Virus record (IMG/VR): IMGVR_UViG_2579778956_000004 | Location: 1 to 23,861 of that record | DNA length: 23,861 nucleotides | Strand: one strand, 5' to 3' | Source: a virus | Lineage: Duplodnaviria > Heunggongvirae > Uroviricota > Caudoviricetes | In this document: piece after piece, positions 5,995-22,594 of the stretch | Layout: every line of letters begins with the position of its first letter | How positions within the stretch are numbered: position 1 is the stretch's first letter | Notes under the pieces: generated by a model | What the model was told of the DNA's origin: nothing | The model's database searches: none | The model's input: the letters and a program-made list of their open reading frames with translations, nothing else | Position numbers and translations under genes: made by a program

Positions 5995-8510
5995 ACAACG
6001 TTTTTACCGCGATACAAAACCGTGACGGAGAAGCCCTTTCTCGCATGTCAGGTTATGAGCATCAGTACACCAACAATGACAACGTGGTGAACATGTCAGC
6101 AGAGAGGCTTGTTGATGCCCTTTTCAAACAGCTGAAACAACTGTTTCCGGCGGCAGTGGTAACCAACCTGAAGACGCCAGAGCAGGAAGTTGCTGCAAAA
6201 CAGCAGTGGATTGCTGCGTTTGCCGAAGGTGGGATCCGAACCCGTGAACAGGTTTCTGCTGGTATGCGCCACGCCCGCGCCAGTGAATCTCCGTTCTGGC
6301 CGTCGCCAGGGCAATTCATCAAGTGGTGCAAAGACAGCAAGATGGTTCTTGGCGTCACCATTGACGATGTGATGGCGGAGTTTCACCGGTACAGCAAGGA
6401 AAAAAGTTTATATCCTGGTGGTCCCGAAAGATTCCCGTGGCGGCATCCGGTTATGTACTGGGTCGTATGTGATACCCGCCGTGCAATGTATCAGCGCCAG
6501 CTTAGCGAGATTGAGGTTGAGAAACACGCGCGCAGGCTGCTCGATGATTGGGCGAAAAAGGTGGCTTCCGGACAGCAGATACCCGATCCGGTGATCAGCA
6601 TACAGGCAAAGCCAGAGCCCATGAGTACACCTCCGGACACAGGGAGAGACGTTTACCATCCACCAGGGCGAAGTTTCGGGTGCATGCCTAACGCCGCTAT
6701 TCGCCGTGCAGATAGTAACTACTATCGCGCCGTTACAGCAGGCAAAACAGGTACTTTGCGCCCTTCGCATACAGAAGGCACATCATGGGATGGCTGGGGC
6801 GGATCCGGTGATGATGACACTGGCATTGAGTGGGAATATCTGCACAGTGGTTTTGGCATTGCCCGTATCACTGCTGCAAATGGAACTACTGCAACTGCCG
6901 AGGTGATTTCCTATATCCCTTCGCAGGTAGTTGGCGAGGATAATGCCAGCTATAAATGGGCTAAATATGCCTGGAACAGTGTTAATGGTTATCCTGGCAC
7001 TGTTGTTTATTATCAACAACGTCTTTACTTCGCCGCATCGACTGCGTTCCCTCAGACTATCTGGGCCAGCCGTACTGGGGATTATAAGGATTTTGGCAAA
7101 AGCAATCCTACGCAGGATGACGACAGAATTATCTACACCTATGCCGGGCGTCAGGTTAATGAGATCCGTCACCTGATTGATGTTGGTTCGCTGGTGGCAC
7201 TGACTTCCGGAGGTGAGTACGTCATCACCGGCGACCAGAACAAAGTGTTAACCCCATCATCATTTGCATTCAGCTCTCAGGGATCAAATGGCTCAAGCAA
7301 CGTCCCGCCAATTGCCGTGGCGAATATTGCTTTGTTCGTCCAGGAGAAAGGCAGTGTTGTACGTGATCTGGCCTACTCATTCGATGTTGACGGCTATCAG
7401 GGGAACGACCTGACCATCCTTGCCAATCATCTTTTTCAGAAGCACAGCATTGTTGACTGGTGCTTCTCGATTGTCCCTTACTCCAGCGCCTTCTGCATTC
7501 GTGATGACGGTAAATTGCTGGTGATGACCTATTTGCGTGATCAGCAGGTTTTTGCATGGGCACCACAATCCAGTACCGGGAAATATGAAAGCACATGCAG
7601 TATCAGCGAAGGCAATGAAGATGCGGTGTATTTCGTCGTTAACCGAACCGTTAACGGGCAAACAGTGAGATACATAGAGCGACTGTCCAGCCGTTTATTT
7701 ACCAGCGATGAAGATGCTTTCTTTGTTGATTCTGGCCTTAGCTATGATGGAAGAAATACGTCTGACAGAACGATGACCATCACTGGTGGTTCTGGTGAAT
7801 GGGATTACCGCGCGGAATATACAATCAGTATTTCTGGTGGTGCGTACTTCACCAGTAGTGATGTCGGCGCGCAACTACAGTTCCCTTATGCCGGAACTGA
7901 TCCTGATACTGGCGATGAAGTGTCAAAAGAATTACGTTGCGACATTATTTCTGTAACCAGCAATACCGCTGTAGTGGTTCGTGCTAACAGGAACGTCCCG
8001 CCATCCCTCAGGAATGTGGCCACCACGAACTGGCAGATGGCGCGCCGGACATTTGGCGGCTTGTCTCATCTTGAAGGCCAGACCGTAAACATCCTCTCTG
8101 ATGCGAACGTGGAACCACAGAAAGTGGTTTCCGGAGGTGCCGTCACGCTGGAATCTCCGGGGGCTGTAGTGCACATCGGCCTGCCAATAACTGCTGAATT
8201 CGAAACACTGGATATCAACATTAACGGACAGGAAACGCTGCTGGACAAAAAACAGGTGATCCCGTCCGTTACTCTGGTTGTGAATGCCAGTCGCGGCATC
8301 TGGGCGACTACGCCCGGCGGTAAATGGTACGAATATCCACAGCGTGAATTCGAGTTCTACGATGATCCTGTTGATGACGCTACCGGAAAAGTAGAAGTAA
8401 AACTGGACAGTAACTGGGGCAAAAACGGACGTGTAAGAATCCGTCAGCTTGACCCGTTGCCGCTGTCTGTTCTTGCCGTTATTCCTCGTCTTACTGTTGG
8501 GGGATTCTGA
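5991..8510 (+). CDS. Chimeric ORF: lambda-P-like replication protein N-terminal region continuous with about 600 aa of structural-type (tail-tube-like?) sequence
   Basis: Start assigned to GTG 5991, with SD GGGAGGA 6 nt upstream and coupled to the O-like stop. The first ~215 aa include KQQWIAAFAEGGIRTREQVSAGMRHARASESPFWPSPGQFIKWC, which closely parallels lambda P as I recall it (RQWVLAFRENGITTMEQVNAGMRVARRQNRPFLPSPGQFVAWC). The remainder is a Gly/Ser/Thr-rich sequence with no intervening stop, and its stop overlaps the next gene start. Confidence 0.6.
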   Translation: MNNVFTAIQNRDGEALSRMSGYEHQYTNNDNVVNMSAERLVDALFKQLKQLFPAAVVTNLKTPEQEVAAKQQWIAAFAEGGIRTREQVSAGMRHARASESPFWPSPGQFIKWCKDSKMVLGVTIDDVMAEFHRYSKEKSLYPGGPERFPWRHPVMYWVVCDTRRAMYQRQLSEIEVEKHARRLLDDWAKKVASGQQIPDPVISIQAKPEPMSTPPDTGRDVYHPPGRSFGCMPNAAIRRADSNYYRAVTAGKTGTLRPSHTEGTSWDGWGGSGDDDTGIEWEYLHSGFGIARITAANGTTATAEVISYIPSQVVGEDNASYKWAKYAWNSVNGYPGTVVYYQQRLYFAASTAFPQTIWASRTGDYKDFGKSNPTQDDDRIIYTYAGRQVNEIRHLIDVGSLVALTSGGEYVITGDQNKVLTPSSFAFSSQGSNGSSNVPPIAVANIALFVQEKGSVVRDLAYSFDVDGYQGNDLTILANHLFQKHSIVDWCFSIVPYSSAFCIRDDGKLLVMTYLRDQQVFAWAPQSSTGKYESTCSISEGNEDAVYFVVNRTVNGQTVRYIERLSSRLFTSDEDAFFVDSGLSYDGRNTSDRTMTITGGSGEWDYRAEYTISISGGAYFTSSDVGAQLQFPYAGTDPDTGDEVSKELRCDIISVTSNTAVVVRANRNVPPSLRNVATTNWQMARRTFGGLSHLEGQTVNILSDANVEPQKVVSGGAVTLESPGAVVHIGLPITAEFETLDININGQETLLDKKQVIPSVTLVVNASRGIWATTPGGKWYEYPQREFEFYDDPVDDATGKVEVKLDSNWGKNGRVRIRQLDPLPLSVLAVIPRLTVGGF

Positions 8511-8974
8511 TGATCGATGTTCGAATTATTCCCGCTACCGAAGAGCATCTTCAGATGATTTTGCCGGATGTTCGTCAGGCTGATATTGACGAACTGTATG
8601 CGGTATCACTGATGACTACCGAAGATGCGCTGCGTGTTGGTCTGCGTACTGCGACTATGGCCTGGTCAGGATTTGCGAACGGAGAACTGGTAACCATGTT
8701 TGGCGTATCTCCGGCGTCAATGATCGGTGGCAATGGTACGCCCTGGCTGGTCGGAACCAGCCGTATTGAAAAATATCAGAAGACATTTCTTCGCCACTGC
8801 CGCCCTGTATTGCAGCAGATGCTGGCAGTTTATCCGCGCCTGGAAAACTATGTCGACGAGCGAAACCATGTTGCCAAAGCATGGCTGCACTGGCTTGGAT
8901 TCAGGCTTGAAGAAGCCGCGCCTTATGGTGCACTTGGTCTTAATTTCCACAGATTTCACATGGAGAGCAAATAA
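8510..8974 (+). CDS. Small virion-associated protein, T7 gp13-like by position and size (hypothetical)
   Basis: 154-aa ORF whose ATG overlaps the upstream stop (TGATG). Position and size match the gp13 slot of a T7-like gp12-gp17 series. No motif recognised. Confidence 0.45.
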   Translation: MIDVRIIPATEEHLQMILPDVRQADIDELYAVSLMTTEDALRVGLRTATMAWSGFANGELVTMFGVSPASMIGGNGTPWLVGTSRIEKYQKTFLRHCRPVLQQMLAVYPRLENYVDERNHVAKAWLHWLGFRLEEAAPYGALGLNFHRFHMESK

Positions 8975-9549
8975 TGTGCGATCCGGTTATTGCTGGTGGC
9001 GCAATGCTCGCCATGAGTGGCATTCAGGCATACACCCAGTACCAACAGGGAAAGTATGCCTCGAAGGTTGCAGAAGCGAACGCAGATATAGCCACAGCTC
9101 AGGCAAATGATGCAATAAACAGAGGTAACGCTGAAGCTGAGCAACGGCGCAGAGAGACCCGACAGCGGCTTGGTACACAGGCAGCGACAATGGGGGCTAC
9201 CGGCGCTGATTTATCTACAGGTAACGCGCTGGATATATTTGGTGACACTGCTCAGTTTGGCGCTCTTGATTCGCTAACGACGGTGAATAACGCGCAACGC
9301 GAGGCTTACGGTTATCAGGTTCAGGCTGCCAACTATAAAGCAGAAGCCAGTTCAGCCCGTAAACAGGGGAATGTGGGAGCAGCAACAACTTTACTCACTG
9401 CGCCTCTGAAGGCATACGGTGCGTACCAGATGTTTGGTGGGACGTGGAGTCCGTTCTCTAAAGGAAGTACATCTAGTGGTGGGACGCCAATGTTATCTAA
9501 CTCAGGTTTTATGAATTCTGACTCCCGATTCAAAATAGGAGGTTACTGA
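8974..9549 (+). CDS. Internal virion protein, T7 gp14-like
   Basis: 191 aa, begins MCDPVIAGGAMLAMSGIQAYTQYQQGKYASKVAEANADIATAQ. Ala/Gln-rich with an N-terminal Met-Cys, similar in size and composition to T7 gp14 as recalled. Start overlaps upstream stop (TAATG); SD GGAGAG. Confidence 0.5.
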   Translation: MCDPVIAGGAMLAMSGIQAYTQYQQGKYASKVAEANADIATAQANDAINRGNAEAEQRRRETRQRLGTQAATMGATGADLSTGNALDIFGDTAQFGALDSLTTVNNAQREAYGYQVQAANYKAEASSARKQGNVGAATTLLTAPLKAYGAYQMFGGTWSPFSKGSTSSGGTPMLSNSGFMNSDSRFKIGGY

Positions 9550-12062
9550 TGCCTGTTGTTCCTACTACATCCGGACGCCAGGTTGAGAGCCGTGGAGTTC
9601 AGTCAGCAGGCTTGCAGACGTTTTCTCAGCCAGGTATTGGTGATGCTTTTGTTCGGGCAGGGACAGAGGCAATTGATGTTTTGGGGCAGGCAAAACAGCG
9701 TGCCAATATCGCTCTGGCTCAGGAGGCATCTCTTAACCTCAGTCAGATAAGCAGTGATCTGCTGAATAACCCTGAAACAGGTTTGCTTAACCTGAAAGGG
9801 AAAAATGCTATTGGAAAAGGCCATGAGTATACGCAGCAGTTTGATGCTCAGGTCGAACAACTGGCTATGTCGCTGCCGGATGAACAGGCTCGTAATGCTT
9901 TCATGCAGCAGGCGCAGCAGCAGCGCATTCAGTTCACTACGCAGGCCGGGCGGCACGAGATAGGGCAAATTAATGCCTACGAAGAAGGTCAGTTTCAGGC
10001 GACGCTGCTGAACAATGGTAAAAATGCCGCAGCATTGTATGGCGACAATGCCGCATACGTATTGGCTAATAAGCAAACTTTCCAGCAAATTGAGGAGTAC
10101 GGTGCTGCACATGGCTGGAGCGACGAGCAAATACAGGCCAAGAAAATCGAGTTTAAAGAGAAGGTTGCTGATGCAGCATTGTCCCAGTGGTCGGCAAACA
10201 ATGCGACCGCATTCATCCAAAGTAATGGCGAGTTAAGTGATACTGCTGCTGGAGCTCGCCGTGCTGTAACAGATAGTGGCTCTTCCGAGCGTGTCCGTGG
10301 CATACGCAACAATAACCCCGGAAATCTCGAATATAGCAAAACTAATCCGTGGGTAGGCCAGACCGGTGATGATGGTAGATTTGCTAAATTCGAAACACCT
10401 GAACACGGGATTCGTGCATTAGGGCGGAACCTGATGTCGTATCAGCGGCAGGGTATTGATACCGTCAGCGAGATAATTAATCGCTGGGCACCGCCTACTG
10501 ATAAAAATGACACTATGTCGTATATCAAAGCAGTGTGCGAACAACTTGGCGTTTCTGCTGATGAGCCTCTCGATGCATCAAATCCTGATACCCTGAAGGC
10601 GCTTTGTGCAGCCATTATCCATCATGAGAACGGTAGCCAGCCATACAGTGATCAGCAGTTAACTGCTGGTGTCAGTGCAGCACTTGGTTTATCAACAATT
10701 CCAACCAACACCAAACGCTATACCGGTAATGCAGCATTCGATGCGGCATCTCCTGAGGCTCAGGCAAGTTTTATGCGGCAGGCGGATCAACTGCGTCGGC
10801 AGCAGCAGGCTGAATATAAAACGATGATTGACAGCCAGGTTCGCGATGCGACGGCTGCGTATATGCGTGGCGTTGAATTTCCTAACCCACCTGGTGAGGC
10901 TGATTTTATTGCAGCTTATGGAGTCAGAGAAGGAAACCTGCGATATACCGAGTTTAAGAATACGCAGATCGCCGGACAGTATATAGGCTCTTTCCGCAAC
11001 ATGCCGACAAGCAGCATTACAGCATATGTTGAGCAATTACGCCCGGATACTGGTGAAACAGGGGAGGGGTATGCGGCACGCGCAGCTCTTTATGACAACG
11101 TTGTTTCGGCTGCAAATCAGGTGATAAAGCAGCGGCAGTCGGATCCTGTGCAGTTCTCTCTTGCCTCCGGACAGACAAAGCCTATCGACATGAGCAATAA
11201 GGATAACTTTGGACAGAGCGTTGCCTTGCGTGCCGCTCAGGTCAGTGACCTTGCTAAGTCATATGGCACTCCACTGACGTTCTTTTCCAAAGACGAGGCC
11301 AATCAGATCGGTGTTTTCTTTCGTGATGCTCCAGTTTCCCAACAGGCAGCATATCTCGATACCATCAGGCAGAGCACTGGTGGTGGGCAGGTGTATATGT
11401 CAGCACTACAGCAGATCAGTGCCAACGCTCCATCTGCTGCCGTTGCCGGGATACTGATGGATAAGCCAGGTGGTATTTTGGCAGAAAAAAACTGGTTTAA
11501 TCCGGATGTTTCCGTGTCTCCTGAAACCGCTGCGCAGACAATTCTTGCTGGCGCGGCGGCTCGTAAAGGTACTGATGACGCGAAAGGTATTCCGATGCCT
11601 AAAGATGCTGATCTCCGCCTTGAGTTTTCTGACATGGTGAAGGATGCATTTGCTGGTGATGCTCAGGGGGCATCAATGGCATACGAGATCGCAAAGGACT
11701 ATTACGCTGGTGTGATGGCGAAAAAAGGCGTGGTATCAGGCGAAATTGACAATGATATCTGGAAACAGGCTGTTAACGTAGCTACAGGTGGCGTGCATGA
11801 CTATAACGGAATGGGGAATGTTCTTTTGCCGTGGGGAATGTCTGCAGAGCAATTCGATAAGCAGGTTAATCAGGCTTGGAATGAACAAGTTGTTGGCACA
11901 GGGATAAAAACACCGCCTGGTCAGTATGGTTTGCAAAGTTACGGCGATAGTCAGTACCTGGTGAAACTTGGTACTGGTTATCTGCTAAAAGATGATGGTT
12001 CTCCCGTTGTTCTTGATCTGACACAGAAGCGTCAGAGATTCTCCGGAGATATTCCGCAATGA
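9549..12062 (+). CDS. Large internal virion / ejection protein (T7 gp15/gp16-like) with a possible cell-wall-hydrolase-like segment
   Basis: 837 aa; SD AGGAGG; start overlaps upstream stop (TGATG). Residues ~250-350 contain RGIRNNNPGNLEYSKTNPWVGQTGDDGRFAKFETPEHGIRALGRNLMSY, which looks like a conserved enzymatic module, but I cannot assign the family without a search. Confidence 0.6.
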   Translation: MPVVPTTSGRQVESRGVQSAGLQTFSQPGIGDAFVRAGTEAIDVLGQAKQRANIALAQEASLNLSQISSDLLNNPETGLLNLKGKNAIGKGHEYTQQFDAQVEQLAMSLPDEQARNAFMQQAQQQRIQFTTQAGRHEIGQINAYEEGQFQATLLNNGKNAAALYGDNAAYVLANKQTFQQIEEYGAAHGWSDEQIQAKKIEFKEKVADAALSQWSANNATAFIQSNGELSDTAAGARRAVTDSGSSERVRGIRNNNPGNLEYSKTNPWVGQTGDDGRFAKFETPEHGIRALGRNLMSYQRQGIDTVSEIINRWAPPTDKNDTMSYIKAVCEQLGVSADEPLDASNPDTLKALCAAIIHHENGSQPYSDQQLTAGVSAALGLSTIPTNTKRYTGNAAFDAASPEAQASFMRQADQLRRQQQAEYKTMIDSQVRDATAAYMRGVEFPNPPGEADFIAAYGVREGNLRYTEFKNTQIAGQYIGSFRNMPTSSITAYVEQLRPDTGETGEGYAARAALYDNVVSAANQVIKQRQSDPVQFSLASGQTKPIDMSNKDNFGQSVALRAAQVSDLAKSYGTPLTFFSKDEANQIGVFFRDAPVSQQAAYLDTIRQSTGGGQVYMSALQQISANAPSAAVAGILMDKPGGILAEKNWFNPDVSVSPETAAQTILAGAAARKGTDDAKGIPMPKDADLRLEFSDMVKDAFAGDAQGASMAYEIAKDYYAGVMAKKGVVSGEIDNDIWKQAVNVATGGVHDYNGMGNVLLPWGMSAEQFDKQVNQAWNEQVVGTGIKTPPGQYGLQSYGDSQYLVKLGTGYLLKDDGSPVVLDLTQKRQRFSGDIPQ

Positions 12063-13861
12063 GTTACTTTGGCCTTAATCCAGTAAACCAGAATCAGCAG
12101 CTTGACGAAGCAGCATCAAATCCAGCTGGCTTTAACAGCGATGTTGGTTTTTTCGACAATGCTGTAGGAGCGGCATTGTCTGGTTTGTACTCCGGGCTGG
12201 TGGCAAAGCCAGATCAGTTGCTCTGGGCAGGGATGGATAAAATCGTATCCCCGATTGCTCAGTTTGTTAACGAAAACACCTCGCTCAATGACACTTCAGT
12301 TTCATACGTTGCCGAGCAGAGAAAACTAGCAGAGCAGCAGGTTAAGCGGCTGACGCCTGATGCCGCGACAACCGGAACCGCCGGGCAGGTTCTTTATGGG
12401 TTGTTCGATATGGGCGGGCAGGCTGTTGTCGGTACAACGCTCGGTGGTCCTGTCGGAGGTGCAGCGGCGGTAACTTCGCTACAGGGTTTTTCTGAGTTTG
12501 AACGGCTGACAGCACAGGGTGTTGATTTCAGGACGGCGCAGGAAGCGGGATTAGTGCAGGGCATTACTGCTGGTGCCGGAACACTGATCCCTATGAGCCT
12601 CGGGTTACGTGCTGGTGGTGCGCTGGCGGAAGGTGTGGCGGCTCAGCTTGCGCGGACGGGTGAGAGTTCAGTGCGACGCGCCGCAGCAACAGCAGTACGT
12701 GCAACGCCAGATATTGCCTATGCCGCAGGTACAAATATTGCGTTCGGTATGGCACAGCGTGGGCTTACTGCAAAAACACTTCGTGATGGTGGCTATAGCG
12801 AAATGGCTAACCAGTATGATGTGTTGGATCGACAGGCAATTGCTATTGATGCTGTTCTTGGGGTGGCGTTTGGTGGTGTCGGCAGATTTATTAACTCTCG
12901 CGGCGAGTCTACAAACGCACCAAATTTTTCACCAGTTGATATCGATGCTGCACTGGCGGCGAATGCCGCTCATCATGCTGAAATTGATATTGCGCCCGGC
13001 GTGCCGATCAACGTGCTTTCGCGCAATTCTCACATTCAGGCTCTGCGAAAAGCTATGTCTGATGTTAGCCAGGGGAGACCTGTAGACGTTGCCAGCATTG
13101 TTGAGTCTGCATCTTTCAGTGAAATTCCTGGGCGCAAGAGTCTGCTGTCTCAGGCAGTTAATGAGGCTCTGTCATCTGTAGATGATGGAGTAACGGCGCG
13201 CGCTATAGAAAATCGGTTGCTTGAAGAACAGGCCGCGCAGCTTTTGCCGCGTGGAGATAGACAGGTTTACCAGTCTGAAATCGCTAATAGCCAACGAATT
13301 ATTGAAAATCTCACTGAACAGCGTGCACAAATTCTTGCAGAAGAGCCAACCGGTAGCGGTAAAGCTTTGTCTCGTGCTCGATCAGATAAACAGGCCAGAC
13401 TTCGCGATATTGATCAACGAATCCGGCAGGCACAAGAACGCCTGGAATTTTCCCGTAACGCGTTGGCACCGCACGAGCCTGGCGGTCAGTTTTTTGAAGC
13501 TCGAGCAGAACTGGCTCGGAGACAGCAGGCAGAAAGTGAACTTAATGCTCAGGCTGTTTCATTCTATAAAACAGCAGAGGTCAGGACGCCAGACGAAGTA
13601 GCTCCTTTTGAGCCTGATAAAATATTGCAACAGGCAGAACAAAAAATGATGTCAGATCCGGCAGGAGATATTGATCTGCGCATAGCTGAAGACTCGCTGC
13701 TTGAATCACCTGACATGATAATCACCGTGCTGGATGATGATGGTAATCCACAATCGCGCAGTGCGCGTGAAGTACTGGATGAAGCGAACAGGGAAAGTGA
13801 GCAGGCAATACAGGATTCCAGCCTGTTTGATGTTGCTGTGGCGTGTTTCTTGAGAGGTTAA
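12059..13861 (+). CDS. Large internal virion / ejection protein (Gly/Ala-rich)
   Basis: 600 aa; start overlaps upstream stop (ATGA). The N-terminal half is Gly/Ala-rich and hydrophobic (GTTLGGPVGGAAAVTSLQG...), the C-terminal half charged and coiled-coil-like. Consistent with a core/ejection protein. Confidence 0.55.
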   Translation: MSYFGLNPVNQNQQLDEAASNPAGFNSDVGFFDNAVGAALSGLYSGLVAKPDQLLWAGMDKIVSPIAQFVNENTSLNDTSVSYVAEQRKLAEQQVKRLTPDAATTGTAGQVLYGLFDMGGQAVVGTTLGGPVGGAAAVTSLQGFSEFERLTAQGVDFRTAQEAGLVQGITAGAGTLIPMSLGLRAGGALAEGVAAQLARTGESSVRRAAATAVRATPDIAYAAGTNIAFGMAQRGLTAKTLRDGGYSEMANQYDVLDRQAIAIDAVLGVAFGGVGRFINSRGESTNAPNFSPVDIDAALAANAAHHAEIDIAPGVPINVLSRNSHIQALRKAMSDVSQGRPVDVASIVESASFSEIPGRKSLLSQAVNEALSSVDDGVTARAIENRLLEEQAAQLLPRGDRQVYQSEIANSQRIIENLTEQRAQILAEEPTGSGKALSRARSDKQARLRDIDQRIRQAQERLEFSRNALAPHEPGGQFFEARAELARRQQAESELNAQAVSFYKTAEVRTPDEVAPFEPDKILQQAEQKMMSDPAGDIDLRIAEDSLLESPDMIITVLDDDGNPQSRSAREVLDEANRESEQAIQDSSLFDVAVACFLRG

Positions 13862-13866
13862 ATTAA

Positions 13867-16341
13867 ATGAGACAGGAATGTATACAAGCGGTCCAGCAGG
13901 CGGCGCAGCGCACGTTAACGGAGCGAGAAATACAGAACATTGAAGACCGCATTTATCGAAATATGCGCTCCATTGCTCGTGATGACCCGATGTCGTGGAG
14001 ACAACTTTCCGAATCAGAGCGGCTATATCGAGCAGCACAATTGGCATCTGAAGAATTACAGCGAGAAGCGGCATTAAAGAAACGTCGTGTGGCCCTCACT
14101 ATAGCCGCACGTCAGAGATTGGATAAATTTATCAATAGCTATCAAGGGGCTGATGGGAAACTTGGCGCTCTTAACCGTACTATTGCTTTTAATGCAGACG
14201 GTAAATCGAATTTCCTCTCTGTTGAGTCCAGAACAAAAGCCACTCGTGATTATGCATTGAGTCAATTGCAGGAGGCATTTGAAGCAGTTGATCCTCGCTT
14301 TTTTGGCCTGTTTGAAGATGAAGCTGGCGTACGTGACCTGGTATATGAAATGCGAGGGCAAAATACTGGCAATGCTAAAGCAAGAAAAGGTGCTAAGGCG
14401 TGGAGAGAAGTGACAGATCTACTGCGCCGCCGGTTTAATGATGCTGGTGGGGACATTGGCTATCTCGAAAACTGGGGGATCCCTCAACATCATTCTATGG
14501 AAAAGGTTGGGGCGGTATCAAAGGATAAGTGGGTTAGCGATGTTATAGGTAAGCTGGATCGCAAATATTATATCCGAGCCGATGGACAACTGATGAACGA
14601 TGCCGAGTTGTCTGCATTTCTTGGAGAGGCTTATAACACGATCGCTACAGGTGGGCTGAATAAGCTTACTGATACCGGAATGCGAATTTCCGGCGCACGT
14701 GCTAACCGTGGTAATGCATCACGACAGATACATTTCAAAGATGCAGATTCCTATCTGCAATATCAGCAACTTTATGGCGATCGCTCTCTATGGGAAATCA
14801 TGGTCGGTCACCTTGAAGGTATCAGTAAAGATATTGCACTGGTGGAAACATATGGCCCAAACCCCGATCATGTTTTCCGCTCTCTTCTTGATCAGGTGAA
14901 GGCAGAAACGGCAACAGCTAACCCGAGTAAAACCGGTAAAGTCGAGCGGCTGGCGAACAACACAGAGAATCTGTACAACTTTATTTCCGGAAAGACACAG
15001 CCTGTAGCGAATCCGCACATCGCGCGATGGTCTGACAATATCCGCAACTGGTTGGTTGCCAGCAGACTCGGATCCGCGTTGCTGTCATCGTTCTCTGACC
15101 TTGGAACCATGTATCTGTCTGCGAAGGTTACCAACCTTCCAATGAACCAGTTATTCCGCAACCAGCTTGAAGCTATGGACCCAACGAACCGTACAGAACT
15201 TGCGCGGGCGCGCCGCGCTGGTCTGGCGATGGAATCTCTACTTGGCAGCGTTAACCGCTGGGCGATGGATAATATGGGGCCGTCTGTGTCTCGTTGGGCT
15301 GCAACGGCGGTAATGCGTGCCAGTGGGCTTACAGCATGGTCAGATGCGCACAAGCGCGCCTATGGCGTAACCATGATGGGAAGCCTGGGAGAAGTAGTGT
15401 CACGGACACCAGACCTTCGTAGCCTCGATGATTCTGATTTTCGTATCCTGAAAAGCAAAGGGATTACTGACACAGACTGGAGCGTATGGAAGCTGGCGCA
15501 ACAGGAGGACTGGGGGAACGGCAATAATACGATGCTGACACCGGAAAGCATTATGCGTATCCCTGATTCAGCAGTTAAACATCTTGGTGAGCCTGAACGC
15601 GTGAAATTTGAGGCAACGCGCAAACTGCTCGGTGCCGTAACTGAAGAAGTTGATATGGCTGTTATTACACCGGGAGCACGTGAGCAACTGATAACCGGTT
15701 CTGGTATTCAGCGTGGAACATGGAAAGGTGAATTAACGAGAAGTGTTTTCCTGTTTAAATCGTTCCCTATCTCGGTGGTTATGCGTCACTGGTCACGCGC
15801 TATGGGTATGCCGTCTGCTGGTGGGCGTGCGGCATATATTGCGACGTTTATTGCCAGTACGACCATTCTTGGCGCTTTGTCGCAGCAACTTAACGACCTT
15901 GCGTCTGGTCGTAATCCTCGCGAGATGACAGGAGAAGATGCTGCTAAATTTTGGCTTGGTGCTCTACTGAAAGGTGGTGGTCTTGGCCTTTACGGTGACT
16001 TTTTATTGTCAGATCACACTAGGTACGGAAGCGGCGCGCTGGCGTCGATGCTTGGCCCGGTAGCTGGTCTGGTTGATGACGTAGTGAAGATTGCTCAGGG
16101 CATACCGTTAAATGCTGTGGAAGGGAAGAGTGAGCAGACTGGTGGTGATCTGGTTAAGCTTGGGAAGGGGCTGATGCCAGGTGCAAATCTCTGGTACTTG
16201 AAGGCGGCTCTCGATCACATGATTTTTAACCAGATGCAGGAGTATTTTTCACCAGGCTATTTGCGTAAAATGGAGCAACGTTCGAAGAAAGAGTTTAACC
16301 AGACATACTGGTGGCGACCTCAGGATGTCACTCCGCAATAA
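13867..16341 (+). CDS. Large internal virion / ejection protein
   Basis: 824 aa; SD GAGAGG precedes the ATG at 13867. Last gene of the tightly coupled structural series. No specific motif recognised. Confidence 0.55.
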   Translation: MRQECIQAVQQAAQRTLTEREIQNIEDRIYRNMRSIARDDPMSWRQLSESERLYRAAQLASEELQREAALKKRRVALTIAARQRLDKFINSYQGADGKLGALNRTIAFNADGKSNFLSVESRTKATRDYALSQLQEAFEAVDPRFFGLFEDEAGVRDLVYEMRGQNTGNAKARKGAKAWREVTDLLRRRFNDAGGDIGYLENWGIPQHHSMEKVGAVSKDKWVSDVIGKLDRKYYIRADGQLMNDAELSAFLGEAYNTIATGGLNKLTDTGMRISGARANRGNASRQIHFKDADSYLQYQQLYGDRSLWEIMVGHLEGISKDIALVETYGPNPDHVFRSLLDQVKAETATANPSKTGKVERLANNTENLYNFISGKTQPVANPHIARWSDNIRNWLVASRLGSALLSSFSDLGTMYLSAKVTNLPMNQLFRNQLEAMDPTNRTELARARRAGLAMESLLGSVNRWAMDNMGPSVSRWAATAVMRASGLTAWSDAHKRAYGVTMMGSLGEVVSRTPDLRSLDDSDFRILKSKGITDTDWSVWKLAQQEDWGNGNNTMLTPESIMRIPDSAVKHLGEPERVKFEATRKLLGAVTEEVDMAVITPGAREQLITGSGIQRGTWKGELTRSVFLFKSFPISVVMRHWSRAMGMPSAGGRAAYIATFIASTTILGALSQQLNDLASGRNPREMTGEDAAKFWLGALLKGGGLGLYGDFLLSDHTRYGSGALASMLGPVAGLVDDVVKIAQGIPLNAVEGKSEQTGGDLVKLGKGLMPGANLWYLKAALDHMIFNQMQEYFSPGYLRKMEQRSKKEFNQTYWWRPQDVTPQ

Positions 16342-16350
16342 GGAAGTGTT

Positions 16351-16536: not shown

Positions 16537-16833
16537 ATGCAAGCTATAGGATTCATTGTTTATATCGTCGTTGGTCTTTTTCAGTTGGCAGCAATTATGG
16601 CTGGGCTTGAATCATGGTGGGGATTGCACTGGATAATTGCAGCCCCCATTGCTTTCATCGTGAGCTATATTCCATTTGTTGGAGCGATTGTTGGTATGGT
16701 TGGCGCTGTGGATGTATGGCGGTGGGAGTGGTGGCAGGCTGGCCTTCTCTTCTTTGGTGGGATCATCTTTGCTATTGTCTGCGGTGGAATGTCATCATTT
16801 TTCGAATGGCTATCATTCAGAAAAGGGACGTGA
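16537..16833 (+). CDS. Small integral membrane protein (98 aa)
   Basis: Three hydrophobic segments (IGFIVYIVVGLFQLAAIMAGL; WIIAAPIAFIVSYIPFVGAIVGMVGAV; GLLFFGGIIFAIVCGG) with Trp-rich loops. Followed by a terminator. Confidence 0.5.
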   Translation: MQAIGFIVYIVVGLFQLAAIMAGLESWWGLHWIIAAPIAFIVSYIPFVGAIVGMVGAVDVWRWEWWQAGLLFFGGIIFAIVCGGMSSFFEWLSFRKGT

Positions 16834-16842
16834 CATGTCACA

Positions 16843-16866
16843 GGCCGCTTTCGCGGCCTTTTCTTT
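16843..16866 (+). terminator. Rho-independent terminator after the small membrane genes
   Basis: GGCCGC-TTTC-GCGGCC stem-loop followed by TTTTCTTT. It overlaps the stop codon of the convergent minus-strand gene. Confidence 0.5.
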
Positions 16867-17122
16867 ATGTGGTTTGTTTTCGTAATTGTTCGGCACAATA
16901 GTCTAGATGTGTTTGCAGATCCTGCATAGACATCTGTGAGCTGGTGACGTAGTTAATCAGTGCAGTCAGTTCGGCAAGTGGGCCATCGACATTAAATCCA
17001 TCTTTATCGAGATCCCGGAGTAATTTCATCAAGTGCGATCCATCCACCAGTGACCTGACGCCTCCCGGCGTGTGAATCCTTTCGGTAAATCCGTCTTCCA
17101 GTGGATAGTGATACTGCTGCAT
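16865..17122 (-). CDS. Small SOS-regulated protein (85 aa), candidate antirepressor
   Basis: Start assigned to ATG at 17122 (MQQYHYPLEDGFTERIHTPGGVRSLVDGSHLMKLLRDLDKDGF...) with GGAG 8 nt upstream. The longer 126-aa ORF in the track would read through the LexA box and operator. A near-consensus LexA box sits about 20 nt upstream of this ATG. Confidence 0.55.
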   Translation of the reverse strand: MQQYHYPLEDGFTERIHTPGGVRSLVDGSHLMKLLRDLDKDGFNVDGPLAELTALINYVTSSQMSMQDLQTHLDYCAEQLRKQTT

Positions 17123-17141
17123 CTTATCTTCTCCATGCAAT

Positions 17142-17161
17142 AACTGTATATTTATACAGTA
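17142..17161. promoter_or_regulatory. LexA (SOS) box
   Basis: AACTGTATATTTATACAGTA matches the E. coli LexA consensus TACTGTATATATATACAGTA at 18 of 20 positions, with the CTGT-N8-ACAG core perfect. On the minus strand a TATAAA -10-like hexamer lies inside the box. Confidence 0.75.
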
Positions 17162-17198
17162 GCAAATAATTTGTTTGCTATCCAGCACGTTTTGCAAA

Positions 17199-17213
17199 TT
17201 ACCTGAAAGGTAA
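17199..17213. promoter_or_regulatory. Operator-like palindrome TTACC-N5-GGTAA between the SOS gene and the tailspike gene
   Basis: TTACCTGAAAGGTAA, a perfect inverted repeat of the same type as at the immunity region, followed by the shared 11-mer ATCTATTCGTA (17215-17225). Confidence 0.45.
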
Positions 17214-17317
17214 TATCTATTCGTATTTACAGTCTTTCTATCCATATGTGGTTTTGCAGGTAATAGAATAACCAGATATGCGGCGCAACGGGTGCTGCGA
17301 CTATCTGGAGATTTAAC

Positions 17318-19480
17318 ATGACGGTCTCAACCGAAGTTGACCACAACGAATACACAGGTAACGGCGTTACGACATCGTTTCCGTATACTTTTCGAATTTT
17401 CAGAAAATCAGACCTGGTTGTTCAGGTGTCTGACCTGAACGGGAACATCACAGAGCTGATTCTTGATACTGATTATACAGTTACGGGTGCTGGTGGGTAT
17501 TCTGGTGGCAATGTAATACTGATGTCGGCACTTGCAAACGGATACCAAATTTCCATTTCGCGTGAGTTGCCGGTGACGCAGGAAACCGATCTCCGTAATC
17601 AGGGTAAGTTCTTCGCAGAAGTGCATGAGGATGCTTTTGATAAACTGACTATGCTGATTCAGCAGGTACGCAGCTGGTTAAGTCTGGCCCTCAGAAAGCC
17701 TTCGTTCGTGGCTAACTATTATGATGCTCTTAATAACTACATCAGAAACCTGCGAGATCCTTCACGCCCGCAGGATGCGGCAACTAAAAATTATGTTGAT
17801 AGCGTTGCAGATACAAACCTCAACAAAACACTAAGAACACCGGAAGCTATTCAATCTCTTCCTGATGCGATTTCCAGGGCAAACAAAATTGTTGCTTTTG
17901 ATAGCGCTGGTCAGCCATTTGCAACACTACCCCCATCAGGTAGCGCCACCGATGTGTTAATTGAGCTGGCAAAGCCTACTGGAGCGGGATTATCAGGGTT
18001 CGATAAGTCAGTTGATTACGCCGGTGGTACGGTTGGTAGTGAGCTAAAAAATGTTATATTCGTCAATCCTGATATGTATTCAACATTGCAGGAGGCGATT
18101 GATTATGCAGCATCTTTAACAGGGCTGGAACATTCTCCAAGTAGTGCAGCTGGGCATCCAGACTGGATACAACCAAATACTGTATGCAAAGTTGTCAGAT
18201 TAAATGGAAAGAAATACCCCATAAACACAACATTACATGTTTACGGTGATGTAAGCATAGATGCAGAATTTGGAGGGGTATATCTCACGGATGACTTCAT
18301 AGCAGATTCTTCTGGGTATGCTGTTAAATGCGATAAAGGAACAGGTAATCAATACGCTGGGCACATTAGCAATCTTTTAATTGACGCCCGCGCAAAGACT
18401 GTTAATGGATTTAAAATATCTGATGGTTATGCCAACAAGTTAGATGGCATTTACGTAGCCAACGTTGATGGTCATGGCATTCATATTGCTGGAGGCATGG
18501 GTGTGCACCTCATGAAATTCTATGCTATCAGCGTATTAAAACCTACGAATCCACTTAGTCAGGCACACATCATAGAAGGAAGCGATCACCATATTAGTAT
18601 GGGTGAAGGCAGATATTTCAGATTCGGAACGTGGGTTAGGAATGGTGGAAATAACAGGCTTAATAACGTACATAACTGGGGAATGTATGACGATACAGTG
18701 GCCGACCAAAACTCAAGAATGAAATGTTGCTTTGTTGTACAAAATTCTATAAACAACTCATTTAATCAATGTTTTGCAGATTCACCATCAAAATGGGATT
18801 ACACAAAAACAAATTTAGCTCCTGTTGATGGTTATATTAATGGTGGGATTGGTTTCTTCGTTGATAGTGGCGCTACCGGGAATATATTCTCTCAGTGTCA
18901 AACGTTCGTTAACATGAATGCTTATAATTCTGCCGGTCTCTCAAGTTATACTGCGGCGTTATATCCATTTCTTGTAGGTAGTGCGAATTGTGGATTTTCT
19001 TTATGTGAAAACTCAAACAGCCCAGCATGGGTTGGTAAATGTATAAATCATGTTTCTGGGGTGGCTCAAGAGTTCACAAATGCTGTGGGGACAAAAAATT
19101 TCGTTGGCATAGAAGACGACATGCATGCTAACAGGACTTTTTTCAGAAAAGGAGTTGGTGTTCCAATTATCTCGTATGTTATTAAAACAGAAACAGCAGG
19201 AAGCACTTATGTTGCTGATTTTTCATTGTCTTCTTATATTTCAATAACATGCAACTCTAACATTAGTATATCCGTTGCGACACTCAGTAACCCGCCAATA
19301 GGATATACTGAATGTACACTTTCAGTGTTTTCCGCATCATCAAAACTGATCACCTTTACAGGATCTGTTACGCTTGCGAAAAATACACCATCACTAAATG
19401 AATCCGGAACTCAGGTGTTCCGGATGTCAACTGCTGATGGCGGGGCTACTTGGTATGCGAGACTTGTAGCGAACTATTAA
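17318..19480 (+). CDS. Tailspike / tail fiber with T7-gp17-like N-terminal anchor domain and a distinct C-terminal receptor-binding region
   Basis: 720 aa; SD GGAG. N-terminus EYTGNGVTTSFPYTFRIFRKSDLVVQVSDLNGNITELILDTDYTV follows the conserved pattern of the T7 gp17 N-terminal domain shared by podovirus tailspikes. The C-terminal two-thirds are visibly more AT-rich and Asn/Gly/Ser-rich, consistent with a beta-helical receptor-binding domain. Confidence 0.8.
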   Translation: MTVSTEVDHNEYTGNGVTTSFPYTFRIFRKSDLVVQVSDLNGNITELILDTDYTVTGAGGYSGGNVILMSALANGYQISISRELPVTQETDLRNQGKFFAEVHEDAFDKLTMLIQQVRSWLSLALRKPSFVANYYDALNNYIRNLRDPSRPQDAATKNYVDSVADTNLNKTLRTPEAIQSLPDAISRANKIVAFDSAGQPFATLPPSGSATDVLIELAKPTGAGLSGFDKSVDYAGGTVGSELKNVIFVNPDMYSTLQEAIDYAASLTGLEHSPSSAAGHPDWIQPNTVCKVVRLNGKKYPINTTLHVYGDVSIDAEFGGVYLTDDFIADSSGYAVKCDKGTGNQYAGHISNLLIDARAKTVNGFKISDGYANKLDGIYVANVDGHGIHIAGGMGVHLMKFYAISVLKPTNPLSQAHIIEGSDHHISMGEGRYFRFGTWVRNGGNNRLNNVHNWGMYDDTVADQNSRMKCCFVVQNSINNSFNQCFADSPSKWDYTKTNLAPVDGYINGGIGFFVDSGATGNIFSQCQTFVNMNAYNSAGLSSYTAALYPFLVGSANCGFSLCENSNSPAWVGKCINHVSGVAQEFTNAVGTKNFVGIEDDMHANRTFFRKGVGVPIISYVIKTETAGSTYVADFSLSSYISITCNSNISISVATLSNPPIGYTECTLSVFSASSKLITFTGSVTLAKNTPSLNESGTQVFRMSTADGGATWYARLVANY

Positions 19481-20594
19481 CTTTTGAGTTGAATCTCAAC
19501 TCAATGTTTTTATAGGTTATTAGTGATATTATCACAGTAATCATAAATGTAATTATTGACATAATGAAGTAGGAAAGGATTCCTATTTCATATAGGTTAA
19601 ACCCAATTATTTTAAATACGTATAAAGATAGATATATAATAGCTTGGTGGCTAAGGTATATGCTATAGCTAATCATACCAATCAATACTATGTTGCTGGA
19701 TTGAAGAAACTTAGGCTTAATGTAGCAAATGCTGGAGAATAATATTGTTACTAAAATAAATCTATAAATCCCGTATCCGTCATCTTTTTGATAAATGCAG
19801 GTGAGCAATGTTAATATTGCTGTAATTGATATAATCAACTTCCAAGATTTTTTATCATGGTTTAGTGAATTATCGTAAACAACTTTACCAACCGCACCAC
19901 TAATGAAAAATAAAAACATATCTGTATTTAAATTAGACTTTTCTATAGTATAAATACCAATAATAAACAGTGTTATGGAAATATATTTTTCATTTTTATA
20001 AAAAAGAGATATAGCTACAATTGATATATAGAAAATCCATTCATACGGCAGAGTCCATGATACCACGCCAATACTGTGTATCCATGAGTCTTTGAAGAAA
20101 ATTCCACCGCCAAGAAACCCAAACGCTAATAGCTGAATAAGTGCTTTTCTGTAATCATCAAGACTAGCTCCATCAGACATAAATATTATAAACACTGCCA
20201 TGTTTATCAATGCAAAAAATAAAAACGCAGGTGCTAGTCGTTTTATTCTCTTCATCATAAAATCATCCGCGCTTTTTACATTTTTTATTCTTGATAAAAA
20301 AAGGAACCCGGTAATTGCGAAAAATATCTCCACCCCTAATGAGCCAAAATTATCATATATCGGCATTATTTTATATGGAATGTTTTGGTTTGTTATCCCT
20401 ATCGTAGGTAAGTAGTAAGCAAAATGATTGAAAAAAACCATAATACATGCCACACCCCTAAGACCTTCAAGCCACAAAATATTGTTTTGTGAATTGTTTA
20501 CTATCCCTGATTTCACAGGAATAAGAAATACAAAAAAAATAAAAATTAAGAATGCAATAAGCTGATATACGCTAAAATCATAGAAAAAACTCAT
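19446..20594 (-). CDS. Acyltransferase-3 family membrane protein, O-antigen acetyltransferase-like (lysogenic conversion candidate)
   Basis: 382-aa polytopic membrane protein with LWLEGLRGVACIMVFFNHFAY near the N-terminus, typical of Oac/OafA-type acyltransferases. Strongly AT-rich relative to flanks. SD AGGA precedes the ATG at 20594. The 3' end overlaps the tailspike 3' end by 35 nt. Confidence 0.8.
   Translation of the reverse strand: MSFFYDFSVYQLIAFLIFIFFVFLIPVKSGIVNNSQNNILWLEGLRGVACIMVFFNHFAYYLPTIGITNQNIPYKIMPIYDNFGSLGVEIFFAITGFLFLSRIKNVKSADDFMMKRIKRLAPAFLFFALINMAVFIIFMSDGASLDDYRKALIQLLAFGFLGGGIFFKDSWIHSIGVVSWTLPYEWIFYISIVAISLFYKNEKYISITLFIIGIYTIEKSNLNTDMFLFFISGAVGKVVYDNSLNHDKKSWKLIISITAILTLLTCIYQKDDGYGIYRFILVTILFSSICYIKPKFLQSSNIVLIGMISYSIYLSHQAIIYLSLYVFKIIGFNLYEIGILSYFIMSIITFMITVIISLITYKNIELRFNSKVNSSLQVSHTK
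19484..19511 (+). terminator. Putative rho-independent terminator after the tailspike gene
   Basis: TTGAGTTGA-ATC-TCAACTCAA hairpin (9-bp stem) followed by TGTTTTT, starting 4 nt after the tailspike stop. It lies inside the 3' end of the convergent acyltransferase ORF. Confidence 0.45.
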
Positions 20595-20772
20595 TACTCA
20601 ATCCTGTTTTATACGTAATTTATTTCATTTTAAATGCTAAACCATCCACAGTCACTCAGTTCTATGCCGCGTTTGTGTTTTTTGTGGCTAGACATCAGGT
20701 AATTTACTCCATATATGGTTTATTGTGTATGATGAACTCACCAACTAAGGGGGTTTTTATGCACAGTAAACG

Positions 20773-21186
20773 GTGGTCACTATGTCAGCCCAGCTAACCA
20801 GTGAGTCTTTAAATCAGTGGCTTAGTATGGGTTCTCTGGCTGCGGTAATCGCAGGTGTCCCTCCCGAGGTGGCTCTTGGTGCTTTATCCGGGGCGGTAAT
20901 ATTTATTACCTCTGCCGTTGAGTATCCAATACGCCGCCGGGTTCTCCTGTCGATGCTCAGCTTTCTCTGTGGGCTTCTCTTCTACAAACCAACTGCATCA
21001 ATTCTTATCGGCGTAGCCAGCCTGATCCCAACTATCACGCAGGATTCATTCGAGAAAGGGATCGTCTTCTCTGCTGGCGCGTTCGTGTCGGCAATCGTCG
21101 CAGTACGTATTGGTATCTGGCTCTATCACCGTTCGGACAATCCACGCGATTTAATCCCGGGGAGAAAAGACGATGACAACTCATGA
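20773..21186 (+). CDS. Putative holin
   Basis: 137-aa product with hydrophobic segments (LAAVIAGVPPEVALGALSGAVIFITSAV; ILIGVASLIPTI; IVFSAGAFVSAIVAVRIGIWLY) and a charged C-terminus, placed first in the lysis cassette. GTG 20773 and ATG 20782 are alternative starts. Confidence 0.5.
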   Translation: MVTMSAQLTSESLNQWLSMGSLAAVIAGVPPEVALGALSGAVIFITSAVEYPIRRRVLLSMLSFLCGLLFYKPTASILIGVASLIPTITQDSFEKGIVFSAGAFVSAIVAVRIGIWLYHRSDNPRDLIPGRKDDDNS

Positions 21187-21481
21187 GCTGCTTTTATTGA
21201 TAGCCAATGCGGTTATCTGTTCTGCGATAGCAATCCGCGTCGGAACCTTCCGGAGAAATGGATCGCAACACCGAAGGTTGGGAGGCTGGCTTGCTTATTT
21301 CCTGATTGTTGCTGCAGCTAGTATTCCTGTTCGTGTCGTCTATGCAATCTGGTTACGTACGCCAATGGCTGTGGATTTATCTGAGGTCATTATCAATGCT
21401 GTCATGCTTGCCGCGGTTATTAAAACACGCGGTAACGTTGTTCAGATTTTCAAAATATCGAGGTCTAAACATGGAGATTAA
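21173..21481 (+). CDS. Second small membrane protein of the lysis cassette (holin/antiholin-like)
   Basis: 102 aa with three hydrophobic segments and a basic C-terminus. Overlaps the previous gene by 14 nt and the endolysin start by 11 nt. Confidence 0.5.
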
Positions 21482-22100
21482 ACAATTCCAGCGAGCTGCT
21501 GGTATTAGCGAGGCGCTGGCCGCACGCTGGTTCTCGCATATAACTTCTGCGATGAAAGAGTTTGGTATCAGCAAACCAGAAGATCTGGCAATGTTTATTG
21601 CTCAGGTCGGGCATGAGTCTGGAGGCTTCACCCGGTTGCAGGAAAATTTCAACTACAGCGTCAGCGGACTGGCTAATTTCGTTCGGGCTGGGCGTCTCAC
21701 TCAGGGACAGGCCAACGCATTGGGGCGTCGTGCTGGTGAACCACCATTGCCACTTGAGCGCCAGAGAGCGATCGCCAATCTGGTGTACAGCAAACGCATG
21801 GGTAACAATGCCCCAGGCGATGGATGGAATTACCGTGGGCGCGGACTTATCCAGATTACCGGTTTGAATAACTATCGTGACTGCGGAAACGGCCTGAAAG
21901 TGGACCTGCTGGAGAGTCCTGAACTGCTGGCGCAGGACGAATACGCGGCTCGTAGCGCGGCGTGGTTTTTTGCCAGCAAAGGCTGCATGAAGTATACCGG
22001 CGATATTGCACGTGTAACTCTGATTATCAATGGTGGCCGGAACGGCATTGATGACCGGCGCGCGCGATACATCACTGCCAGTAAGGTGCTGGCGGTATGA
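21471..22100 (+). CDS. Endolysin, glycoside hydrolase family 19 (chitinase-like)
   Basis: Start taken at ATG 21471 ([11 protein letters not shown]...); the upstream extension in the ORF track overlaps the holin-like gene. Contains [10 protein letters not shown] and [16 protein letters not shown], characteristic of GH19-type phage endolysins. Confidence 0.85.
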
Positions 22101-22594
22101 TCTGGGCATTCGTAAAAGCATACTGGAAACAGTTGCTTATCGTGGCGGTGCTTGCTGTTCTGGTCATATCAGGAGTTGTTGCCTGGAATGTACACGGTAG
22201 CCGTCAGTACGACGCCGGGTATGCGCAGGCACAGGAAGATCAGAAGCAGGCTGATGATAAGGCCAGGTCACAACGTGATCAGGAGAAAACACAAATTGAA
22301 CGTGAAGCACAATCCCGTATCGATGTGGCGCGTGTTGATGCTGAGCATGCTAATGCCGCTGCTGACAGCCTGCGCGCCGAGCTTGACAAAACCAAGCGAC
22401 TCGCCGAACACTATACCGGATCTTTCCCCACTGGCACGCCAGCCAGCAAGGTCATCGGTGTGCTCGCCGACATGCTTGAAGAAAGCAATCGAGTTTACAA
22501 CGCAACAGCAGCTGAGGCTGAAAAGTATCGGATTGCAGGAGAATCCTGCGAACAGCAATACGATTCACTGAGGAAGCAAAAATCGTGGCACTGA
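22097..22594 (+). CDS. Inner-membrane spanin (Rz-like)
   Basis: ATG overlaps the endolysin stop (ATGA). N-terminal transmembrane helix [18 protein letters not shown] followed by a charged coiled-coil-like periplasmic domain. Confidence 0.7.
22323..22571 (+). CDS. Outer-membrane lipoprotein spanin (Rz1-like), embedded in the Rz-like gene in another frame
   Basis: [41 protein letters not shown]... has a signal peptide with an LLTAC lipobox and a Pro-rich mature part, nested wholly within 22097-22594. Start is uncertain (ATG at 22323, 22338, 22347 or 22353). Confidence 0.5.
   Translation: MWRVLMLSMLMPLLTACAPSLTKPSDSPNTIPDLSPLARQPARSSVCSPTCLKKAIEFTTQQQLRLKSIGLQENPANSNTIH

Follow-up and report, generated by a model that had tools for sequence, protein, structure and literature searches.

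The window analysed here, a 23,861-nt stretch comprising positions 1 to 23,861 of the IMG/VR virus record IMGVR_UViG_2579778956_000004, contains the late part of a prophage of the epsilon15/phiV10-like (Uetakevirus) type, and within it a gene for a 720-residue tailspike followed by a convergent gene for an AT3-family acyltransferase. We conclude, with a probability of about 0.8, that this is an epsilon15/phiV10-like tailspike whose receptor-binding module and neighbouring acyltransferase form a single 2.66-kb cassette that is swapped as a unit. The window is 100% identical to sequence in the chromosome of Escherichia coli 2017.15.01CC (NZ_AP021890.1), where the tailspike product bears the RefSeq name hypothetical protein (WP_025651153.1), and the prophage ends beside the host gene yfgI. 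The tailspike open reading frame (ORF) is exactly the one proposed in an initial annotation of this DNA, on the plus strand and with an ATG start, and a GGAG ribosome-binding site lies 8 nt 5′ of that ATG. The gene is placed between the large internal and virion genes and the holin-endolysin-spanin cassette, the order seen in epsilon15-like genomes, its neighbours are 92–100% identical to phiV10 proteins, and phiV10 shows the identical layout of tail fibre, convergent oac, then holins.

Comparison with phiV10 locates the point at which this conserved backbone is interrupted. The large virion proteins are 98–100% identical between the two phages, the holin and endolysin 86–97%, and the small ORF 5′ of the spike gene 92%. 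At the nucleotide level, alignment to phiV10 covers 11498–16344 (98.4%), 16865–17844 (86.9%) and 20709–22342 (87.2%); the gap at 17845–20708 takes in the distal three-quarters of the spike gene and all of the downstream gene, and the epsilon15 match resumes at 20708. At the protein level, BLASTP aligns residues 1–222 with the phiV10 tail fibre YP_512279 at 81% identity, a stretch that spans the Uetakevirus anchor; Pas et al. (PMC10408124) let this anchor end at residue 205 of the phiV10 protein. Residues 216–720, in contrast, match the C-terminal portions of spikes with other anchors at 73–78% identity. The anchors in question are of three kinds: the P22 head-binding domain PF09008, Tail_spike_N (PF18668) and the long N-terminus of Agtrevirus spikes. 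In the four other-anchor tailspikes that were compared the homology runs from 216 to 720, so that the two ranges overlap at the junction; because phiV10 homology ends at residue 222 and the separate family starts at 216, the motif ELAKPTG is the joint between them. The initial annotation had called the tailspike a mosaic, and the 81% match of its anchor to phiV10, set beside matches of 74–78% between residues 216–720 and other-anchor spikes, bears this out.

The strongest evidence that module and acyltransferase move together comes from an otherwise unrelated siphovirus-type E. coli prophage near thrS (L021), the spike of which has a PF18668-type anchor. Positions 17962–20616 of the window correspond to 5979–8633 of L021 in one uninterrupted block that includes both genes and is the sole similarity between the two sequences; it extends from the junction motif to ~20 nt past the acyltransferase start codon. 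The same pair of genes, convergent and overlapping, occurs in a distant, epsilon15-like Proteus mirabilis prophage, in which the module is 70% and the acyltransferase 62% identical and one aligned segment of 2,424 bp runs over both; several neighbouring genes have no detectable homologue in this comparison. All acyltransferase homologues of at least 62% identity that were found adjoin this module. A parallel case involves the same module together with gtrCBA, which form one 4.26-kb block, 91.9% identical, shared by a P22-like and a siphovirus prophage. The joint acquisition of the two genes as a cassette, also put forward at the outset, is therefore well founded, resting on the L021 block, the phiV10 gap and the single Proteus segment. 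Comparison with a variant prophage (L012), in which the block is 91.8% and the flanks 96.6% identical (p = 4e-6), supports the cassette without deciding the matter. The nearest conserved flanks in Uetakeviruses are the anchor and the holin gene, so that when the module is replaced by homologous exchange the acyltransferase goes with it.

One further feature of L021 was observed upstream of its acyltransferase gene. A stretch of 211 bp (L021 5671–5881) is 90.5% identical to the 5′ end of gtrA and its upstream region in another prophage locus (L008), and it looks like the remnant of a gtr operon displaced by the acyltransferase cassette.

Table 1. Coordinates of the tailspike, its parts and the adjoining cassette in the window
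Feature	Position	Strand	Basis
Tailspike gene of Uetakevirus-type prophage	17318..19480	+	ORF, ATG start, 720 aa; phrog_1640 ‘tail protein’, E = 1e-109
Virion-binding anchor domain, aa 1–150, remotely T7-gp17-N-like	17318..17767	+	89% identical to phiV10
Neck/linker of anchor, aa ~135–215	17720..17962	+	66% identical to phiV10; GC3 already low (0.314)
Junction motif ELAKPTG, aa 216–222	17963..17983	+	Anchor homology ends, module homology starts
Exchangeable receptor-binding module, aa 216–720	17963..19480	+	Modelled beta-helix ~290–525 and C-terminal beta-sandwich ~622–719
Membrane acyltransferase of the AT3 family (382 aa); predicted to O-acetylate O-antigen (conversion/immunity gene)	19446..20594	-	PF01757, phrog_3333
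Overlap of convergent 3′ ends, tailspike/acyltransferase, 35 bp	19446..19480	.	ORF coordinates
Mobile cassette, module plus acyltransferase	17962..20616	.	Single blastn segment, 2,657 bp, 94.1% identity with L021
Block unlike phiV10 and epsilon15, between conserved flanks	17845..20708	.	phiV10 alignment stops at 17844, resumes at 20709

The composition of the locus changes along with its ancestry. Total GC is 0.460 over codons 1–150 of the tailspike gene, 0.457 over 151–220 and 0.401 over 221–720, and the GC content at third codon positions (GC3) is 0.480, 0.314 and 0.311 over the same intervals. The optimal single split in GC3 falls after codon 154 (~nt 17779; 0.487 versus 0.309, z = 4.11), a step as strong as which was found in 0 of 500 permutations, while the same permutation test gave p = 0.02–0.54 for four other long structural genes. 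No 1.5-kb window outside 17300–20700 is as AT-rich as the receptor-binding part. The acyltransferase ORF has a GC of 0.301 and a GC3 of 0.303. Composition is thus not uniform, and both the shift to lower GC inside the tailspike gene and its continuation into the adjacent conversion gene, as initially described, hold; the refinement is that the GC3 step, at about codon 154, precedes the visible drop in total GC.

To what receptor might the module be directed? It is present in nine complete E. coli genomes, in five of them on a Uetakevirus spike (one in a decayed prophage), in three on a P22-like spike and in one on a siphovirus-type spike. The host of the present prophage has its O-antigen cluster between galF and gnd, and a search of 5426 genomes for the wzy gene of that cluster identified it (≥99.8% identity) in only 80 (1.5%). 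Among the matches listed, eight of the nine module-bearing complete E. coli genomes have this same wzy (≥99.8%; one copy is partial). The association, although circumstantial, speaks strongly for recognition by the module of the O-antigen of that one cluster, an assignment in keeping with the reported O-antigen specificity of Uetakevirus spikes (PMC10408124).

The serogroup to which this cluster belongs has been named in two ways. Of a published quantitative PCR assay for ‘O19 wzy’, both the forward primer and the probe match the wzy gene (L013 20098–21264 in the host) with zero mismatches, and TW11681, the strain targeted by that assay, is reported as O19:H45 (PMC6192177); 2011C-4315, whose wzy is identical, is reported as O153:H2 (PMC5754485). 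The strain name CE-O153H30 also falls on the O153 side, and the sources conflict on the serogroup label. That O-type lies outside the serogroups to which Pas et al. (2023) gave a receptor-binding subtype (PMC10408124). We considered whether the module could be the O153-specific TSP3 of Agtrevirus AV101 and set this aside, AV101 being absent among the eight matching phage records. We also considered a rough host, the flippase gene wzx being annotated as partial beside IS1. This was rejected: E. coli SMS-3-5 has the same arrangement, and O serogroups have been reported for other carriers of this wzy. In both the host (L013 17963–19141) and SMS-3-5 (L014 9124–11513) the flippase gene is annotated partial, with IS1 adjoining gnd; because both strains are alike in this, it is a fixed trait of this kind of cluster, as opposed to a lesion private to one strain.

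When the spike was searched directly against Pfam and NCBIfam there were zero matches, and the nature of the module was examined by structure prediction. In the AlphaFold2 (AF2) model, which is of a monomer, it forms a right-handed beta-helix, in agreement with the C-terminal beta-helix module that characterizes Uetakevirus spikes, and its nearest fold matches include alginate epimerases, lyases and capsule depolymerases. The initial annotation had looked to structure prediction for such a helix and for catalytic residues; the helix is present in a model of moderate quality, and catalysis could be assigned to no residue. Four acidic residues are invariant in the module alignment (D252, D369, D488 and D494 in full-length numbering) and are catalytic candidates only; E420 and D423 are further candidates. 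A match of residues 591–720 to the PDB sequence 9eol (UPF0309; E = 0.01) was treated as chance.

The downstream gene encodes a strongly hydrophobic protein with multiple hydrophobic segments. It matches PF01757 (Acyl_transf_3) at E = 2.8e-29 over residues 40–357 of 382, the sole family reported, with no fused SGNH domain, and phrog_3333 ‘O-acetyltransferase’ at E = 3e-45; there is no NCBIfam equivalog for it. Its motifs include R46-X10-H57, FFAITG (91–96) and R116IKR119. The R/K-X10-H motif of the first transmembrane helix and the RXXR motif of the first cytoplasmic loop are essential in Oac and OafA (PMC9558356), and an N-terminal alignment with phiV10 Oac places the R/H, SG and RxxR positions in correspondence. 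In the phiV10 record, oac is annotated as an acetylase of the host O-antigen with a role in superinfection immunity, and phiV10 Oac has been described as serotype-converting (PMC9558356). The window acyltransferase is a different AT3 lineage from phiV10 Oac that occupies the same genomic slot. More distant relatives, 31–35% identical, are likewise convergent to tailspike genes in P22-like and siphovirus-type prophages. Among GTDB species-representative genomes no relative closer than 22–27% was found, and none was found in IMG/VR, both searches being limited in their sampling by the rarity of the gene.

The arrangement of the two genes and the fate of the conversion gene gave rise to several additional observations. 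The 35-bp overlap of their 3′ ends is also present in L012, L021 and a third prophage (L025), and in Proteus the overlap is 14 bp; a distant AT3 relative in another locus (L017) overlaps its neighbouring spike gene by 27 bp. At 19484–19504, within the final coding stretch of the acyltransferase gene, lies a hairpin that resembles a terminator for the spike gene, and a convergent overlap with such a hairpin could allow transcriptional interference. Consensus scans gave promoter counts at the level of shuffled sequence and terminator-like sites in modest excess only. In E. coli FG31-1 (NZ_CP142680.1; L002, locus 5313–9006) a decayed copy of the same prophage carries a deletion that fuses the terminase small-subunit gene to approximately codon 91 of the spike gene, leaving the spike as an annotated pseudogene fragment; the acyltransferase, with the identical protein WP_025651154.1, is intact, as are the lysis genes. 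The conversion gene may persist in a host after the phage itself has died.

These observations can be assembled into a proposed mechanism. The protein is, on this account, the single tailspike of a temperate podovirus, its first ~215 residues acting as a genus-conserved anchor that docks the trimer on the tail and consisting of a domain remotely related to the T7 gp17 N-terminal domain, followed by a neck. From ELAKPTG onward it is an exchangeable module, modelled as a right-handed beta-helix and a C-terminal beta-sandwich, which most likely binds and cleaves the O-antigen of one E. coli cluster, that of strains reported as O19 or O153. By analogy with the Oac enzymes of phiV10 and Sf6, the AT3 enzyme most likely O-acetylates the same O-antigen in the lysogen, and the acetylated O-antigen would then be unusable for phages carrying this module. 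The block has also been transferred between prophages of podovirus type and siphovirus type. More tentatively, and at somewhat less than even odds, we suggest that the pair is a self-contained host-range and self-immunity cassette: the AT3 enzyme would acetylate the very epitope its own spike needs, the cassette would hop between tails and between genera of host (E. coli, Proteus) using LAKPTG as its left joint, AT3 and GtrABC would be alternative partners of the module, and the overlap of the two genes might couple their expression.

Several observations weigh against a cassette that is always transferred whole. The pairing is not obligatory, as the module adjoins gtrABC in place of the acyltransferase in P22-like prophages, such as that of strain MLI106K1, and in siphovirus prophages, and virulent Agtrevirus phages carry it with no conversion gene at all. 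The modules linked to the acyltransferase come out as basal and not monophyletic by neighbour joining (6 of 100 bootstraps), and a three-segment likelihood fit to the L012 comparison puts the boundaries off the cassette ends. The unpaired modules and the tree, together with the difference in total GC between module and acyltransferase (0.40 versus 0.30) and the consideration that the pair must once have formed from separate pieces, could be explained if the two genes arrived separately, the gap between anchor and holin being a hot spot for cargo in which they became adjacent by chance. We regard this as quite unlikely. An unbroken 2,657-bp block of 94% identity in two genomes with nothing else in common disfavours separate events for the latest transfers, the Proteus segment likewise runs over both genes, and the close acyltransferase homologues all stand beside the module and overlap it. 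The two genes match in GC3 (0.311 for the module and 0.303 for the acyltransferase), and their total GC differs because of the amino-acid composition of a membrane protein. The age of the association is a separate matter. The initial annotation took the AT-richness of the receptor-binding part as a sign that it had been recently acquired, and this did not hold up: the module is low in GC in every E. coli phage context, the family having a GC of 0.40–0.42 and a GC3 of 0.31–0.34 on podovirus, siphovirus and virulent myovirus spikes. The Proteus module is also below its flanks in GC, and the unrelated module of phiV10 (0.416) and its oac (0.309) show the same step. Because the family has the same composition in every E. 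coli phage background and the phiV10 step is alike, low GC is no sign of recency. It is rather probable that AT-richness is an intrinsic, long-standing trait of receptor modules and O-antigen-modifying genes that is silent on when they were acquired; the host O-antigen cluster itself has a GC of 0.32. The pairing is old, since it predates a divergence of ~30–38% at the protein level between E. coli and Proteus, and its alleles stand at 96/92% and 70/62% identity (module/acyltransferase). However, the compositional step alone cannot exclude a recent event, and because cassette alleles differ by 6–10% between prophages whose backbones differ by 1–3%, exchange is ongoing. Our reading is that the pair was put together once, long ago, and nowadays travels mostly as a unit.

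The functional side of the proposal has its own points against it. Between the acyltransferase and phiV10 Oac the identity is no more than 22% (E = 0.014), so that the analogy is one of family, motifs and position; both AF2 models are only moderate, with a mean predicted local distance difference test score (pLDDT) of 65 and parts below 50; no active site could be assigned in the spike module from them; and the serogroup name is ambiguous, since of the strains with an identical wzy one is reported as O19 and another as O153. AT3 proteins have many substrates (PMC9558356), and with neither an equivalog family nor close identity to the proven Oac, the acyltransferase might modify peptidoglycan, enterobacterial common antigen or colanic acid and have no functional tie to the spike. 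This seems unlikely for a stand-alone AT3 protein of Oac size in the exact slot of phiV10 oac, whose 31–35% relatives are also convergent to tailspike genes, which is strictly tied to one module, and of which an intact, identical copy has been kept in a decayed prophage with a pseudogene spike. Similarly, the presence of alginate epimerases, lyases and capsule depolymerases among the nearest folds, and the lack of an identifiable active site, would fit a spike that binds capsule or another surface glycan, or that binds without cleaving. We consider this improbable given that, among the matches listed, eight of nine module-bearing complete genomes share a polymerase type found in 1.5% of genomes, that the genes paired with the module elsewhere are gtrABC O-antigen glucosylation operons, and that the spikes of this genus are O-antigen specific.

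The initial annotation further described the N-terminal ~150 residues as following the pattern of the T7 gp17 N-domain, a claim that stands in part. These residues match many phage tail-protein families with E as low as 1e-109, but the Pfam profile PF03906 gave zero matches to them even at E = 10, and BLASTP of the tailspike against T7 gp17 found nothing. The relationship is a remote one. Alignment of a 27-sequence anchor profile to T7 gp17 with hhalign gave E = 0.063 at a reported probability of 0.9 and is collinear (12–156 versus 11–150), with the motif DAxxxRIxNLxxPxxxxDA common to both, and a homologue of the anchor (P0030, 42% identical over 247 residues) passes PF03906 at 7.2e-13. The AF2 model of the anchor is also moderate (mean pLDDT 65; ~88 over residues 10–88 and lower in the remainder), and a Foldseek search with it matched the T7 gp17 N-terminal chains 7ey9_a (E = 1.2e-4) and 7boz_a (E = 1.6e-4), each with probability 1.0 and a target TM-score of 0.47. 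The top Foldseek match was the Carin-1 tail fibre 8ck1_B (E = 4e-11), and by sequence residues 1–133 are related to the N-terminus of 8ck1/28lx (E = 7.7e-27 among PDB sequences), a solved tailspike attached to a podovirus tail. The neck (residues ~135–227) resembles residues 146–246 of the capsule depolymerase 9m4c (E = 9e-8). ‘T7-gp17-like’ is thus a fair description of the modelled fold and presumed role of the anchor, as remote homology only and with the threshold of the Pfam family missed. Within the anchor, a 310-bp patch (17341–17650) is 79% identical to L012 while both sides are 97–99% identical; the anchor is itself mosaic.

Placed among known systems, the locus is a well-documented kind of phage mosaicism and no new system: both the exchange of anchors and modules in Uetakeviruses and the location of O-antigen modification genes behind the receptor-binding gene are known (PMC10408124), the latter in Lederbergviruses as well as Uetakeviruses (PMC10408124, PMC10791037, PMC9558356). 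Among the closest is phiV10 (YP_512279 and Oac, YP_512280), which shares the genus-level backbone with flanking proteins 87–100% identical, the anchor, the spike/convergent AT3/holin layout and the compositional step. Its receptor module is unrelated, however, with no match between its tail fibre and residues 221–720 of the window protein; the two AT3 proteins are 22% identical, the target of phiV10 is O157 and that of the window module would be a different cluster, and phiV10 Oac has been tested experimentally whereas the window acyltransferase is known from sequence alone. Epsilon15, the Salmonella phage that is the type member, has in gp20 an anchor of the same family and similar lysis neighbours (95.7% nucleotide identity in the holin region) but a different module, only residues 204–248 of the window protein aligning, at 60%; no relative of the window acyltransferase was found in it. 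P22-like (Lederbergvirus-type) prophage tailspikes have the receptor module at 74–78% identity, the same host O-type and a conversion module directly behind the spike, with module and conversion genes moving as a block; they differ in the anchor (PF09008) and in using GtrABC glucosylation instead of an AT3 enzyme. The branched tailspikes of Ackermannviridae (Agtrevirus/Kuttervirus), as in vB_CECAV_050 gp159 and YX22, match the module at 73–75% over residues 216–720. There, by contrast, the protein has 1003 residues and an extended N-terminal region, so that the module starts at residue 498. These phages are virulent, and searches for relatives of the acyltransferase found none in them; module exchange between prophages and virulent Ackermannviridae phages has been documented (PMC10791037). 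The N-terminal domain of T7 gp17 (PF03906) is alike in position, in its presumed role in docking to a podovirus tail and in modelled fold, but nothing is related past about residue 150, and gp17 is a fibre, not an enzymatic spike. Finally, Sf6 has an O-antigen-cleaving spike and an AT3 O-acetylase (Oac) that bars reinfection by the same phage type (PMC9558356). It offers a functional parallel that differs in phage lineage, anchor and gene order, and within the phage collection searched no similarity between Sf6 and the window acyltransferase was found at E = 1e-5.

What the locus adds is a mapped cassette found on two tail architectures and in two genera, a module paired with either an AT3 enzyme or GtrABC, and a receptor assignment made by computation. 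It provides a clean natural case in which the host range and, if the proposed function of the acyltransferase is correct, the superinfection immunity of a temperate phage are swapped in one step, with boundaries mapped by nucleotide alignment. A previously unannotated spike module is assigned, by computation only, to one type of E. coli O-antigen cluster, and the module could be tried in typing reagents, engineered phages or tailocins. Because one module is found with two O-antigen-modifying systems, it would also make it possible to ask directly how a tailspike is blocked when its receptor is modified.

The regions on either side of the cassette show minor differences from related prophages. 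Upstream, a 98-aa ORF of unknown function (phrog_3075) occupies 16537–16859, where phiV10 has a Bro-N antirepressor gene, and a strong GC-rich hairpin (16842–16859) lies between it and the convergent small ORF at 16865–17122. Downstream, the second holin, endolysin and spanin genes (21181–22594) are 73% identical in nucleotide sequence to those of the variant prophage L012, with the Rz protein at 53%, whereas the first holin gene is 96% identical; this is a further recombination joint, inside the lysis cassette.

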